Translations under genes and position numbers: made by a program
From: a virus
DNA: 32,290 bases
Virus record (IMG/VR): IMGVR_UViG_3300028800_001532
Reading direction: 5' to 3' (one strand)
Shown here: positions 25,896 to 29,643 of the stretch, piece by piece
How the letters are laid out: every line of letters begins with the position of its first letter
Position numbering within the stretch: position 1 is the first letter of the stretch
Notes under the pieces: model-generated
The model's database searches: none
What the model was told of the DNA's origin: nothing
The model's input: the letters and a program-made list of their open reading frames with translations, nothing else

Positions 25896-26177
25896 ATGGG
25901 ACCTAACGACGACGAAGATCTCGATCAGGACTTCGACTCCGAGGAGGAGTGGGACGATCCGGAGCCCGACTGGGATCGGGATGAGGACCTCATCGACGGC
26001 GTGGGCTTCGCGGACCCCGGTGGCAACTCGGCTCTCCGCGCTGCAACGCCGGACAACCCCCGCAACCAGCCCTGCCCCACGTGCGGCAAGCCGAACAGGC
26101 TGACGCCCAAGGACGTCGCGGCGGGCTACCAGTGCGATCCCTGCGCGGATGCTCTGGAGCGGGGAGACGGACCCTGA
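25896..26177 (+). CDS. acidic protein with a C-terminal C4 zinc ribbon (93 aa)
   Basis: The N-terminus is rich in D and E. The C-terminus reads CPTCG...CDPC. This is the first gene of the overlap-coupled operon. Confidence 0.5.
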   Translation: MGPNDDEDLDQDFDSEEEWDDPEPDWDRDEDLIDGVGFADPGGNSALRAATPDNPRNQPCPTCGKPNRLTPKDVAAGYQCDPCADALERGDGP

Positions 26178-26365
26178 TGGCCGTCGCCAAGTCGCGCGGG
26201 GAGTTCGAGAAGGCCGCCGAAGGGCTGCCCGAGATCCCGCTTCCCGATCTCGCTGCGGAGGTCATCTGCATCGAGCCCGTGAACGCGGAGTACTTTCGCA
26301 ACCCGTCCAGCCGCCAGCGCTGCATCATCCGATTCAACGGCCAGCTCTACGTCACGACCTACTGA
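26177..26365 (+). CDS. small hypothetical protein (62 aa)
   Basis: The ATG overlaps the previous stop (TGATG), in the frame of track ORF 26081..26365. Confidence 0.4.
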   Translation: MAVAKSRGEFEKAAEGLPEIPLPDLAAEVICIEPVNAEYFRNPSSRQRCIIRFNGQLYVTTY

Positions 26366-26371
26366 GACCCC

Positions 26372-26893
26372 ATGAACTCCTACAAGATCCCCCAGGACCC
26401 GGCCTGGTGTTCGACCTGCATCGAGCAGGGCAAGCCGTGCGAGCATCACGTGGGCAAGGACGGCTTGCCCATGATGTACGCGGGCCCGGACGTCTACGAG
26501 CCCTCGCAGTGGGTCAAGGAAGTCGTCGGTAAGCGATACAGGGCCGCTTTCGGAGGGATCGTCACCTGCTTCGGCTACGACCCCCGACACGGCTTCTGGG
26601 TGCGCGATGTAGAGGCACCCCACAAGGAGCACAACATCTCGGAGCGCGCGATCGGTAGGACCTACCATGCGGTTCGCCTCAAGCTCGGCTCGTGGAACCT
26701 GGCCCGGCTCATCGCGAAGATCGAACGGGTGCCCACCGTCGAAGAGGCCAAAGCTCAAGGTGTGGGGCTCGAACTGGCCCTCGGCACACTTCGGGACCTG
26801 GGCGCCATCAACCCGGACGGCACCATCACGGATGAGGGACGCCGGATAGCGGCCATCGAGGATTTCTTCTTGACCGAGGACGCGCACACATGA
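26372..26893 (+). CDS. hypothetical protein (173 aa)
   Basis: Track ORF. Confidence 0.5.
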   Translation: MNSYKIPQDPAWCSTCIEQGKPCEHHVGKDGLPMMYAGPDVYEPSQWVKEVVGKRYRAAFGGIVTCFGYDPRHGFWVRDVEAPHKEHNISERAIGRTYHAVRLKLGSWNLARLIAKIERVPTVEEAKAQGVGLELALGTLRDLGAINPDGTITDEGRRIAAIEDFFLTEDAHT

Positions 26894-27204
26894 GCGCCTC
26901 GAAGAACAAGAAACCCATGCAGCCGAAGACCCTCAAGGCGCTCAAGGAGAGCGAGGAACAGGTGCGACTGTTCCTCGCTTGGATTCGGGAGACCTCTCAA
27001 CGGATCGAGGATGTGCTCGACCGCAAGATCCCCGTGACCAACATCATTGGTCCTCGACGGGAGGACCAACCGTCGCAGCGCCCGTTCTCCGAAGACGAGC
27101 AGGACTACCTCGATGCTGAGGGGTTCAAGGATCTCATCCGCGTCGCAGTGGCGGCACGAGTCGCCTACCGGGAAGCGGTCATGATCAGGAGGCACGGCAA
27201 GTGA
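26890..27204 (+). CDS. hypothetical protein (104 aa)
   Basis: Track ORF. Its start overlaps the previous stop (ATGA). Confidence 0.5.
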   Translation: MSASKNKKPMQPKTLKALKESEEQVRLFLAWIRETSQRIEDVLDRKIPVTNIIGPRREDQPSQRPFSEDEQDYLDAEGFKDLIRVAVAARVAYREAVMIRRHGK

Positions 27205-27557
27205 CGCGCATACGACCATCAGACATCGACACGAGCAAACACTTCTGGGACACCTTCGGGCACCTGGAGACGGAGGTGTCGGCGCGCTACATCGTCCGGT
27301 TCTGCCAGGAGCGGGGGTCGTGGCGTGCCTTCACGTTCCGGCAGATCAACAAGTTCTACCAGAGGTCCCGCAAGACCATCCATGGGCAGGACTTCTCCTT
27401 CAACCGACTCGTCCACGCTACGCACGTCCGCCAGTTCGGCGGATCCTATACGGTCCACGGTGGCGGCTGGGTCCACCTGAACGACAACGGCCGGTATCAC
27501 CTGACGCCCGGCTTCATCGAGCGGTGCTTCGCGGCCACAAAGAGGAAGGCGGCCTGA
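27201..27557 (+). CDS. hypothetical protein (118 aa)
   Basis: Track ORF. Its start overlaps the previous stop (GTGA). Confidence 0.5.
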   Translation: MTRIRPSDIDTSKHFWDTFGHLETEVSARYIVRFCQERGSWRAFTFRQINKFYQRSRKTIHGQDFSFNRLVHATHVRQFGGSYTVHGGGWVHLNDNGRYHLTPGFIERCFAATKRKAA

Positions 27558-27558
27558 C

Positions 27559-27906
27559 ATGACTCCCGCAGAGAAGTTGAAGATGGTCCTGAGTTCGCTG
27601 GATGCCATCGCCGCTTGGGGCGCTCTGATCGACGACGAGCCCGAGAGCCGCAGGATCGCACGCAACCTCCTGCACGAGTTCGGGCTCGCCCCCGAGGGTT
27701 ACGTGCACGAGACGGACGACGAGTGGCATGCCCGTCGCCGTCGCGAGTACAAGTGGTCGGGTACGAAGCCCATCACCAAGGCGAAGCGCAAGAAGAGGGA
27801 GGCGGAGCTGCGCCAGACGGCGGTCTCCTACGCCCGTGCTCCGAAGAACAACCTCAAACCAGAGTGGGTGTCCCTGCTCCTCGCAGCTCAGAGGCTATCC
27901 CTGTGA
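27559..27906 (+). CDS. hypothetical protein (115 aa) with a basic middle region
   Basis: Track ORF. ATG 27559 lies 1 nt after the previous stop. Confidence 0.5.
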   Translation: MTPAEKLKMVLSSLDAIAAWGALIDDEPESRRIARNLLHEFGLAPEGYVHETDDEWHARRRREYKWSGTKPITKAKRKKREAELRQTAVSYARAPKNNLKPEWVSLLLAAQRLSL

Positions 27907-28202
27907 ACACCACACCCATGGTTCGTGTCGTGGACTGGCTCGACAAGGCCTCGGCCGACACGATCCTCCCCAAAGAGGGCGAGACCTACGAGTTCCTCGA
28001 CAACGTCAGCACGCGTGCCGGGCACGTACACCCCAAGGGGTCGCTGCTTTTCATCTGTGATCGGACCGGGATGACGCCACACTTCGAGGTCGGTCCCCGG
28101 GGGTACAACTGGGTCTGCCGGACGCAGTTCAGCGTTTCGGTCTGGGCCACACTGGAGCACTGCATCGAGCGCAAGCTGCTCCGGAAGCTGGAAACGACAT
28201 GA
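27903..28202 (+). CDS. hypothetical protein (about 99 aa)
   Basis: A GTG start at 27903 overlaps the previous stop. ATG 27918 is an alternative start. The frame is that of track ORF 27615..28202. Confidence 0.4.
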   Translation: MNTTPMVRVVDWLDKASADTILPKEGETYEFLDNVSTRAGHVHPKGSLLFICDRTGMTPHFEVGPRGYNWVCRTQFSVSVWATLEHCIERKLLRKLETT

Positions 28203-28483
28203 GCGGTTGCGCCAACACAATGCACCCAGCGGAATGCCCGTACGATTGTGGGCCTGCCGACGAGCCGCAGAAGTGCACCCACAAGAAAGACGGTCGCTCA
28301 GCGTGGCACGGGACAAGCTACCAGCGAGCGCCGAACACCGCGGGCAACTCTGGTCGTGGCCGGACAACAGCCAACCGTCGAGAGTGCTCGCTCTGCGGAC
28401 TCAGACAGAAGAAGCTATACAAGCCCCGCTTCCCAGGTGTACGGCAGGTCAAGAGCCGCTGGATCAAGGACCCTACCAGATGA
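28199..28483 (+). CDS. small Cys-rich protein (94 aa)
   Basis: Track ORF. The sequence carries CPYDCG ... C ... CSLCG. Confidence 0.45.
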   Translation: MSGCANTMHPAECPYDCGPADEPQKCTHKKDGRSAWHGTSYQRAPNTAGNSGRGRTTANRRECSLCGLRQKKLYKPRFPGVRQVKSRWIKDPTR

Positions 28484-29427
28484 AGAACCCTCATCCCCTC
28501 ATGCTCCTGCGCATCGCGCAGGGGGACGCCTACGGGCACGCTGTGGAGTACATCAAGTTCCCGCGAGACCAGCACGTCTACGACAAGGCGCTGCTCTTCA
28601 ACGGGTACGACAAGCATCCGACCCACAACCTCAAGCCCGGCCAGTACACGGACGACACGCAGATGTCGATCGCCGTTGCCGAGGTCCTGATCGCCGAGAA
28701 GGCTCTGTGCATGGACCTACCCACCGGGGCCATGTCCTACATGGACAACTTCAAAAAGATGCACCAGGCCTTCGCCGACAGCTTCGTAGGCTGCTTCAAG
28801 CGGGACCCACGTGACGGCTATGCCCGGGGCTTCCAGGCGTTCCTGGAAGGGGTTGTGGACGGCCAGGACTTCCTTGCCCGCATCAACCCGGACTCCGACA
28901 AGAACGGCGCCGCTATGCGCTCGGTCCCCCTCGGTGTGCTGCCGGACGATGAACTCGTGTACTACGTGGCCGGCGAGCAGGCGAAGCTAACCCACCACAC
29001 GTCCGGGGGCGTCGGCTCCTCAATGTTCGTGGGGTACATGAGCCACTTCGCGATCTACTACAACGAGCCGCTCAGCAAGGCGCGGGAGTTCTTCCAGGAC
29101 AAGCTGAGCATGTCAGACAGGTCTGAGCATCTCGCTCCGTGGCCCGGAGGTCCCGTGGTGGGTCCCGGGGTCGGGATGGCCACGGCTCGCGCGGTCATGA
29201 CCCTCATCTCGACCGAGACCACCCTGCTGGGCATCGCCCGCAAGGCCATCGAGTGGGGTGGGGACGTGGACAGCGTGCTGTCCATCGCCTGGGGGATCGC
29301 GAGCGCCCGCATGGACGGGGCCGAGCTTCCTCCGTTCTTCGAGGGCGGTCTGGAGGACGGGGCTTACGGGCGCGACTTCCTGAGGGACCTCGGGGCGAAG
29401 CTCATGGAGACGTACAAGGAGACCTAA
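28480..29427 (+). CDS. ADP-ribosylglycohydrolase (ARH/DraG family)
   Basis: AQGDAYGHAVEY matches the N-terminal GDAxG motif. GQYTDDTQMS matches the diagnostic YTDDTQM motif. GGDVDSVLSIAWGIASARMDG matches the C-terminal GGDTDTxAAIAG motif. The start overlaps the previous stop (ATGA). Confidence 0.7.
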   Translation: MKNPHPLMLLRIAQGDAYGHAVEYIKFPRDQHVYDKALLFNGYDKHPTHNLKPGQYTDDTQMSIAVAEVLIAEKALCMDLPTGAMSYMDNFKKMHQAFADSFVGCFKRDPRDGYARGFQAFLEGVVDGQDFLARINPDSDKNGAAMRSVPLGVLPDDELVYYVAGEQAKLTHHTSGGVGSSMFVGYMSHFAIYYNEPLSKAREFFQDKLSMSDRSEHLAPWPGGPVVGPGVGMATARAVMTLISTETTLLGIARKAIEWGGDVDSVLSIAWGIASARMDGAELPPFFEGGLEDGAYGRDFLRDLGAKLMETYKET

Positions 29428-29643
29428 GTGAAGCCCTTCCTCGCCGAGTTCGTGCTCCTGTACTTCAAACGTGGAGGCGCCCTTGGGACCGAAACATGGC
29501 CCGCGTGGTTGCGGCGCCAACGGTCGTACATCTTTCGCTCCCAGCACCCCGACTACCAGGCCCTCGTTGCCGAAATCGGGGCGGCCCTCAAGGACGCGGG
29601 CGAGTGTGACACCGAAAGCAAAGCCCCCACGGAAGATCCGTAG
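29428..29643 (+). CDS. small hypothetical protein (71 aa)
   Basis: The GTG start lies immediately after the ARH stop. This is the last gene of the operon. Confidence 0.35.
   Translation: MKPFLAEFVLLYFKRGGALGTETWPAWLRRQRSYIFRSQHPDYQALVAEIGAALKDAGECDTESKAPTEDP

Follow-up and report, generated by a model that had tools for sequence, protein, structure and literature searches.

Early and middle accessory operons of large phages consist of small, overlapping genes with roles in host takeover or anti-defence. Among jumbo phages, ADP-ribosylglycohydrolase (ARH or ARG) domains have been found in ~5% and ADP-ribosyltransferases (ARTs) in >40% (PMC9503650), and because that survey recorded ARG domains in jumbo phages, a phage ARH is already a known kind of gene. 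Here we describe a viral stretch of 32,290 nucleotides (IMG/VR record IMGVR_UViG_3300028800_001532; hereafter the window) in which ten plus-strand open reading frames (ORFs) at 25896-29643, numbered in order g01 to g10, form a tightly packed block with an ARH as g09. We put at roughly 0.6 the probability that these genes constitute one polycistronic accessory block of a huge phage and that the ARH is active. Two relatives were used throughout for comparison: L003 (a JGI contig of 570 kb) and L118 (an ENA scaffold of 536 kb), whose ARHs share 74% and 70% identity, respectively, with g09. The genes of the block are as follows (GC3, G+C content at third codon positions).

25896-26177, + strand: g01, 93 aa; acidic N-terminal half, then a C4 zinc ribbon; first gene
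26177-26365, + strand: g02, 62 aa; TGATG overlap with g01
26372-26893, + strand: g03, 173 aa; zinc site, barrel and winged helix
26890-27204, + strand: g04, 104 aa; ATGA overlap; GC3 0.79
27201-27557, + strand: g05, 118 aa; GTG start; winged helix
27559-27906, + strand: g06, 115 aa; basic; 1-nt gap; GC3 0.83
27903-28202, + strand: g07, 99 aa from GTG 27903 (94 aa if ATG 27918)
28199-28483, + strand: g08, 94 aa; Cys-rich, basic
28480-29427, + strand: g09 (ARH), 315 aa; ARH-fold ADP-ribosylglycohydrolase
29428-29643, + strand: g10, 71 aa; GTG start directly after the ARH stop; GC3 0.78

Ten packed genes and an ADP-ribosylglycohydrolase

The ten genes and their tight packing are real, since GC3 is of coding type in all of them (0.71-0.89), the successive junction gaps from g01 to g10 are small (-1, +6, -4, -4, +1, -4, -4, -4 and 0 nt), and the five genes with a homologue in L003 (including g08) have ratios of nonsynonymous to synonymous substitution (dN/dS) of 0.11-0.58. 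The coordinates and GC3 values bear out the ten co-directional genes proposed in an earlier account of this DNA made from its letters alone (the sequence-only reading). That account also had almost every junction overlapping; six of the nine do, the remaining three lying at 0, +1 and +6 nt, and this frequency does not stand out against a background in which overlaps account for 32-57% of same-strand junctions and spacings of ≤10 nt for 56-68% (four 21-kb loci from this genome and its relatives; binomial p ~0.17 for six of nine against ~45%). Overlap-rich packing is ordinary for this genome type. Nor does the block end in the ARH, as had been stated, for the ARH is the ninth gene and the 71-aa g10 comes after it. 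A Shine-Dalgarno-like sequence precedes most internal starts, that of g10 being AAGGAG, 7 nt upstream.

Judged from its sequence, g09 is a true member of the ARH-fold enzymes, its binuclear-metal active site is complete, and it is predicted to be catalytically active. The protein matches PF03747 at 85.9 bits (gathering cutoff 26.2; E=5e-24) and phrog_6572, 'ADP-ribosylglycohydrolase', at E=4e-17, and its motifs GDAYGHAVE, GQYTDDTQMS, KNGAAMR, TH and GGDVDS align residue for residue to DraG (3G9D). We take GDA..G...E, DDT and GGD-x-D-(S/T) to form the binuclear metal site, as in the published DraG and ARH3 structures; this motif set is complete in g09, with GGDVDS contributing D262, D264 and S265. 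Across 26 clade members (53-74% identical to g09), D16, E23, D58, D59, T60, N142, G143, T171, H172, D262 and D264 are invariant, as are the residues of the ADP-ribose-binding loop K141-N142-G143-A144-A145-M146-R147 except A145, which is nearly so. The TH motif has been named catalytic (PMC9503650). The intact diagnostic motifs reported by the sequence-only reading hold up in these alignments, as do the conserved Asp/Thr metal-binding residues that it had singled out for checking, D16, E23, D58, D59, T60, D262 and D264 all being present.

The enzyme belongs to a large uncultured clade, with 1909 homologues, and its dN/dS relative to L003 is 0.32. Its substrate class is not assignable because the clade profile matches ARH3 only in part and DraG and Tri1 end to end: ARH3 is the best match (1.8e-17, 66.6 bits) over profile positions 52-193 only, followed by DraG and Tri1 at ~5e-13 over their full length and by ARH1 at 6e-9. 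In a single-sequence search with g09, DraG ranks first, and the protein falls below the equivalog cutoffs for both DraG (TIGR02662, 51.8 versus 337 bits) and Tri1 (NF041672, 40.1 versus 490 bits). The nearest cellular homologues, 36-46% identical, are found in cyanobacteria (Nostocales), Chloroflexota (Ktedonobacteria), Actinomycetota and Planctomycetota. Chromosomal homologues of the Nostocales show a conserved HPPK - NUDIX - ARH - SPFH/Band7 gene order (L018 and ~30 loci, positions ~4800-7900), and there are hints of a housekeeping ADP-ribose-handling role for these cellular enzymes. A Pfam scan of ten ARH-adjacent genes in six diverse cellular loci detected no ART, and no conserved ARH partner was seen in nine other phage-like ARH loci (among them L003-L005, L008-L011 and L118) and 80 cellular loci, where the ARH is accompanied by different genes from locus to locus (DUF1848, RNA ligase, NUDIX plus HPPK, methyltransferase, peroxiredoxin, NACHT), none of them an ART.

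Boundaries of the block and its conservation in relatives

Candidate transcription signals flank the ten genes on both sides.

25861-25891, + strand: promoter-like motif GTTGATTC-N11-GGGTTGTAGTAC, 31 nt, ending 4 nt before the g01 ATG
29652-29700, no strand assigned: two GC-rich hairpins between g10 and a convergent 344-aa minus-strand gene; fold z -4.85

The motif at 25861-25891 reads TTGATT-N16-TGTAGT-N6-ATG and is present as a single copy in the window at up to three mismatches (0 expected). Three more copies lie further along the same contig (L001 18067-19638), five in L003 (6728 and 18624-20467) and at least one in L118 (6605), and in each relative one copy opens the homologous block. A metagenome scan added 35 instances in 26 stretches (instances in L092-L117), the lineage-wide form being GTTGATTC-N11-GGGTTGTAGTNC. 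An ATG follows by exactly 4 nt in 24 of 44 instances of the exact pattern, and in most of the others a GGAG-like Shine-Dalgarno sequence and an ATG are found at 14-22 nt. Standard spacing between a -10 element and the start of transcription underlies our reading of the motif as a promoter that starts at the A of the start codon; applied here, the geometry implies a transcript that would begin at the A of the g01 start codon and a g01 mRNA that would be leaderless.

A sigma-70 consensus scan of 24600-30000 returned no sites; with G as the second base of its -10-like hexamer, this motif was out of reach of that scan. Eight copies of the -10-like core GGT(T)GTA[GC]T are present in the window against 1.6 expected, and six of them stand just before gene starts (1108(-), 9217(+), 21513(-), 22070(+), 24781(+) and 25881(+)), including that of a vault-protein gene, MVP, which is considered below. 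The two minus-strand copies of the core (GGTGTACTAGT-N5-ATG) also look leaderless. Between 25896 and 29643 we found neither a copy of the core nor a plus-strand terminator-like site. Beyond g10, the hairpins at 29652-29700 likely act as a bidirectional terminator that has no U-tract, and a different 13-bp hairpin of equal strength (z -4.35) occupies this position in L003. The ten genes thus show what is looked for in an operon (same strand, minimal gaps, no internal terminator), and the single unit proposed by the sequence-only reading is plausible: with one promoter-like motif before g01, none inside the block and hairpins after g10, co-transcription of all ten genes as one polycistronic unit would be the best reading of the sequence.

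Two further non-coding features were observed in the window. A second repeated upstream motif, GGCGCGTGACGTGCGCGCGATC, occurs at 4418-4445, 4728-4755, 15151-15178 and 16915-16942, where it sits within 35-76-nt repeats that run into start codons, and it probably represents another class of phage promoter or operator. Between the stop codon of g0b, the gene preceding the block, and the g01 promoter motif lies a single-copy structured element (25556-25724, + strand; L003 6405-6583; L118 6311-6483) with a mean column identity of 83% across the three genomes, whereas for the flanking proteins g0a and g0b identity between the window and L118 is just 43-57%. RNAalifold placed 53 pairs in the element, five of which show compensatory changes; where the copies differ in length, the difference is in a hairpin loop or close to one. 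The element matched no Rfam family, a metagenome pattern scan gave 0 matches, and a covariance model run over 451 kb of loci recovered only the three training copies. Since the element lies upstream of the promoter motif it is not the operon leader; it could belong to g0b, as a 3' untranslated region or a cluster of terminators, or be a small RNA.

Comparison of the three genomes indicates what is constant at this locus. In L003 and L118 the 5' part of the frame is kept (flanking genes gm2, gm1, g0a and g0b, the conserved spacer and the promoter motif), as is the 3' part, in which 11 or 13 small genes are followed by the ARH and one more small gene; beyond the block, the convergent 344-aa gene, a 75-aa gene and EF-Ts are likewise kept. 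Only g03, g07 and the ARH are common to all three blocks. g02 and g08 are shared by this genome and L003 only, g01, g04, g05, g06 and g10 have no counterpart in the blocks of the other two, and three other genes are common to L003 and L118 and missing here; at the g10 position, different small genes are found in L003 and in L118. The block is a stable frame with cassette-like gene content.

Block proteins, the vault-protein gene and the source genome

The acidic C4 zinc-ribbon protein and the Cys-rich protein noted earlier among the members of the block are confirmed as g01 and g08, respectively. g01 has 26 D+E among its 93 aa and a CPTC...CDPC pair (CxxC-N17-CxxC); it has no family or PDB matches, and no counterpart was detected in L003 or L118. 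g08, with 6 Cys and 19 K+R, is 76% identical to a 96-aa gene of L003 (dN/dS 0.11) and is not present in L118. It has one homologue among 5.8 billion proteins and was not called in the source annotation; its dN/dS argues against a spurious ORF. The description of several members as ORFans fits the lineage-restricted g08 but not g03, which has 33 homologues, or g05, which has 526 cluster representatives at E<=1e-3.

g03 and g05 are the two largest of the proteins lacking a family assignment, and both gave confident structural models. In g03, C13, C16, C23 and H26 are conserved around an invariant GYDPRHGFW core, and the AF2 model (pLDDT 95) has an SH3/Tudor/KOW-like barrel that bears the zinc site and, C-terminal to it, a MarR-like winged helix; as modelled, the protein probably binds nucleic acid or RNA polymerase. 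Many metagenomic contigs also encode its N-terminal ~100 aa (26372-26680; CxxC...C..H) as a separate protein, and Pfam has no model for this domain. g05 is modelled as a winged helix (pLDDT 94) and belongs to a widespread family of ~110-150-aa winged-helix proteins, likewise without a Pfam model, that conserves P6, A28, W41, F105 and a GGGW...DG.Y.VT wing. Of the smaller proteins, g02 is 58-60% identical to a 61-aa L003 gene (dN/dS 0.58), and g07 is 71% identical to its homologue in L003 and 56% to that in L118 (dN/dS 0.20), its GTG start being favoured because of the GTGA overlap, the AGAGG upstream and a VNTT N-terminus conserved in L003. Searches of Pfam, NCBIfam, PHROGs and PADLOC gave no matches for g04 and g10 and no significant ones for g06, and PDB sequence searches with g01, g04, g06 and g07 returned nothing below E=0.38.

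The sequence-only reading had further suggested that one of the ORFans might be a divergent ART. In the same four profile libraries none of the ten proteins matched an ART family at E<=0.1, the sole PADLOC match among all ten being a WYL-type one to g05 at 0.034, and no Pfam ART family was found among the other ORFs scanned, including 40 from the window and the following 7 kb. The models of g03 and g05 are confidently those of non-ART folds. A hidden ART among the unmodelled block proteins is unlikely because, at 62-115 aa, they are smaller than any ART catalytic domain of which we are aware, and the suggestion is not borne out.

Upstream of the block lies a gene for a homologue of the major vault protein (MVP).

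22123-24711, + strand: MVP (vault-shoulder) homologue, with its own -10-like element at 22070
24731-24770: strong terminator, 16-bp stem and T-run

The block had been described as immediately downstream of this gene. From the end of MVP (24711) to the start of g01 (25896), however, there are 1.2 kb, which contain the strong terminator, two or three small genes and a 342-nt structured spacer (z -3.9). MVP looks monocistronic, and neither L003 nor L118 has it between gm1 and g0a; because it is missing from this syntenic site, we read it as an independent, lineage-specific insertion or loss, its adjacency to the block being, on this comparison, incidental. In LR756500 and LR756501 the MVP homologues have no ARH within 20 kb, and in the phage database three MVP-positive records have no ARH match and one ARH-positive record has no MVP match. 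In the interval itself we observed a conserved 42-aa ORF at 24801-24929 (MEWKASARHWEIVREW...) with a TGATG overlap to a 71-aa ORF at 24929-25144 (MAREAQ...CPVCGG); neither is called in the source annotation, both are present in L003, and the 71-aa ORF is present in L118 as well.

The window looks like part of a huge bacteriophage genome, a reading based on four sets of matches. The g09 protein is encoded verbatim on the 218,019-bp ENA metagenome contig ERZ27245399 k141_1829800; the source contig measures 218 kb or more. Over 93-97% of its length, the MVP homologue shares 38-39% identity with proteins from 'uncultured phage' genomes of 462 kb and 735 kb (LR756500, LR756501 and LR756503). The relatives of the ARH lie mostly on contigs of 200-760 kb that are dense with small unannotated genes, and a few window proteins match PHROG families or jumbo-phage proteins. 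The 71-kb JGI contig Ga0265338_10000484 is 100% identical to part of the 218-kb ENA contig, and the GC content of the window is 63%. We rejected a eukaryotic giant virus, against which the overlapping genes with Shine-Dalgarno-like sequences, the bacterial EF-Ts and the bacterial-type promoter geometry all speak. Searched at near-identity against 50,697 phage records, the DNA of 22000-32290 had no match, and IMG/VR scans with the ARH and g03 as queries gave none either. A tRNA scan of the window detected none, and Rfam returned nothing credible (whole window at the gathering threshold; 25500-25950 at E<=1).

Among its many small unannotated genes the window carries cargo that is odd for a phage (1136-2212, 3199-4050, 9265-11695 and 31051-31713): a DnaJ-Ser/Thr-kinase fusion, a histone-deacetylase-family protein, a cluster of Ham1, P-loop-HisG-like and SAICAR-synthase-like genes, all three of which are found in L005 and the last of which is found in L118, and an EF-Ts homologue kept in L003 and L118. 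A SpoU methylase is also encoded.

Readings of the block and known systems

In the picture to which we assign the probability given at the outset, a lineage-specific phage promoter abutting the g01 start codon would fire a leaderless polycistronic mRNA, and transcription would pass through the ten tightly packed genes and stop at the hairpins shared with the convergent gene. The 4-nt overlaps would couple the translation of small proteins of DNA-, RNA- or RNA-polymerase-binding type to that of a metal-dependent ADP-ribosylhydrolase. During infection, the ARH would most likely strip ADP-ribose from a macromolecular target, the marks having been set either by a host ART, in which case the enzyme would serve counter-defence, or by a phage transferase encoded elsewhere, in which case it would serve self-regulation.

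Several points weigh against this picture. The -10-like hexamer TGTAGT does not have the usual A at position 2, and the host sigma factor may not read it. The operon is read from the DNA alone, and promoters of another class may lie inside it. As to the enzyme, its substrate class is ambiguous in sequence comparisons, which do not distinguish N-glycosidic (Arg) from O-glycosidic linkages (Ser, poly-ADP-ribose, O-acetyl-ADP-ribose). In more distant contigs the neighbours of the ARH are unrelated (DUF1848, RNA ligase, ORFans), and since they vary in this way the context of the block says little about ARH function. The scan for ARTs extends over the window and 7 kb of the 218-kb contig. Finally, no structural or virion gene of a phage was seen in the ~40 kb inspected, and the phage assignment rests on relatives.

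A more specific proposal is that the block is a dedicated counter-defence and host-takeover module of an uncultured huge-phage lineage, in which the ARH would free phage nucleic acids (DNA or RNA) or proteins of marks left by host ARTs (DarT-, CmdT- or Tre1-like) or break down immune signals derived from ADP-ribose, and host transcription would be redirected by the co-transcribed zinc, Tudor/KOW-like and winged-helix proteins. We regard this as less likely than not. The literature searched contained no experimentally characterised phage ARH-fold anti-defence enzyme, and, to our knowledge, reversal of DarT-type DNA ADP-ribosylation has been shown only for macrodomain and NADAR proteins. Alternatively, the ARH may act on small molecules derived from ADP-ribose, in signal-degrading anti-defence or in nucleotide salvage, with O-acetyl-ADP-ribose, the 1''-2' or 1''-3' glycocyclic ADPR of Thoeris and other O-glycosidic ADP-ribose adducts as candidate substrates. 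This would fit the rank of ARH3, an O-glycosidic specialist, as the best solved relative of the clade profile, the chromosomal homologues of the Nostocales that adjoin a NUDIX hydrolase and HPPK, and the nucleotide-metabolism genes of the window (Ham1, HisG-like, SAICAR-synthase-like). The ARH3 match is nevertheless limited to part of the profile, DraG and Tri1 matching end to end; DraG also comes first in the single-sequence search, and no Thoeris-related or NAD-salvage gene is adjacent. Given in addition the argument that viral ARH domains favour macromolecular conjugates (PMC9503650), we regard action on small molecules as unlikely.

The two remaining alternatives concern the block as a unit. 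The ten genes might be merely adjacent, served by several internal promoters of an unrecognised class, with tight spacing reflecting compaction; the overlap frequency, which is not above the genome background, would agree with this, as would the turnover of gene content between g03 and the ARH among relatives, such as independent cassettes would show, and the second class of upstream motif elsewhere in the window. Yet the block has no recognised internal promoter-like element and no internal plus-strand terminator-like site, the spaces between its genes, none above 6 nt, are too short to hold promoters, and the Shine-Dalgarno-like sequences at most internal genes fit re-initiation on a polycistronic mRNA, so that mere adjacency appears quite improbable. 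Most doubtful of all, and in our view very improbable, is the partnership raised by the sequence-only reading, in which the block would be an ADP-ribose module tied to MVP, as vPARP is to the eukaryotic vault, and one ORFan would be a divergent ART. MVP and the ARH do lie within 4 kb on the same strand, and g01, g02, g04, g06, g07, g08 and g10 have no assigned fold. Against this, MVP has its own promoter-like element and its own terminator, is absent from the syntenic site of both relatives, has no ARH within 20 kb of it in LR756500 or LR756501 and does not co-occur with one in the phage database; the four libraries gave no ART match, g03 and g05 are confidently non-ART, and the rest are of 62-115 aa. 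The vault-PARP parallel, which was the main source of the locus's appeal, is therefore not supported.

Should the ARH prove to be an anti-defence enzyme, the ARH fold would join the phage toolkit against ADP-ribosylation-based immunity, and g09 would be the first ARH-fold phage anti-defence enzyme. Because the clade is large (1909 homologues, many on contigs of 200-760 kb), one biochemical result would annotate many huge-phage genomes. By-products of the analysis, which do not depend on the role of the ARH, are a well-defined promoter motif with leaderless geometry in an uncultured huge-phage lineage, two unannotated small-protein families (g03 and g05) with confident folds and a conserved structured non-coding element.

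Among described enzymes, the ARG/ARH proteins of jumbo phages (PMC9503650), such as the 'ADP-ribosyl glycohydrolase' of the 469-kb Sinorhizobium phage Phosso, resemble g09 in being stand-alone proteins of ~300 aa encoded among small hypothetical genes, but the Phosso enzyme is only 29% identical to g09, which falls in a large uncultured clade. DraG and Tri1, the latter an ADP-ribosylarginine hydrolase that provides immunity in the type VI secretion system of Serratia, have the same metal- and ADP-ribose-binding motifs and align over their full length, whereas g09 scores far below their equivalog cutoffs and no DraT-like or Tre1-like partner is seen in the scanned block or in the window plus 7 kb. 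ARH3 (ADPRHL2/ADPRS), the eukaryotic hydrolase of Ser-ADP-ribose, poly-ADP-ribose and O-acetyl-ADP-ribose, shares the D-D-T and N-G-A-A-M-R core, but the match covers about half of the profile, g09 is ~35 residues shorter, and substrate specificity cannot be read across from one to the other. In its overall organization the block is most like the early and middle accessory operons of large phages, with which it has in common dense co-directional small genes, 4-nt overlaps, cassette turnover and a mixture of DNA-binding-type folds that includes a MotA-N-terminal-like winged helix; it differs from them in having a lineage-specific promoter motif placed for a leaderless first gene.

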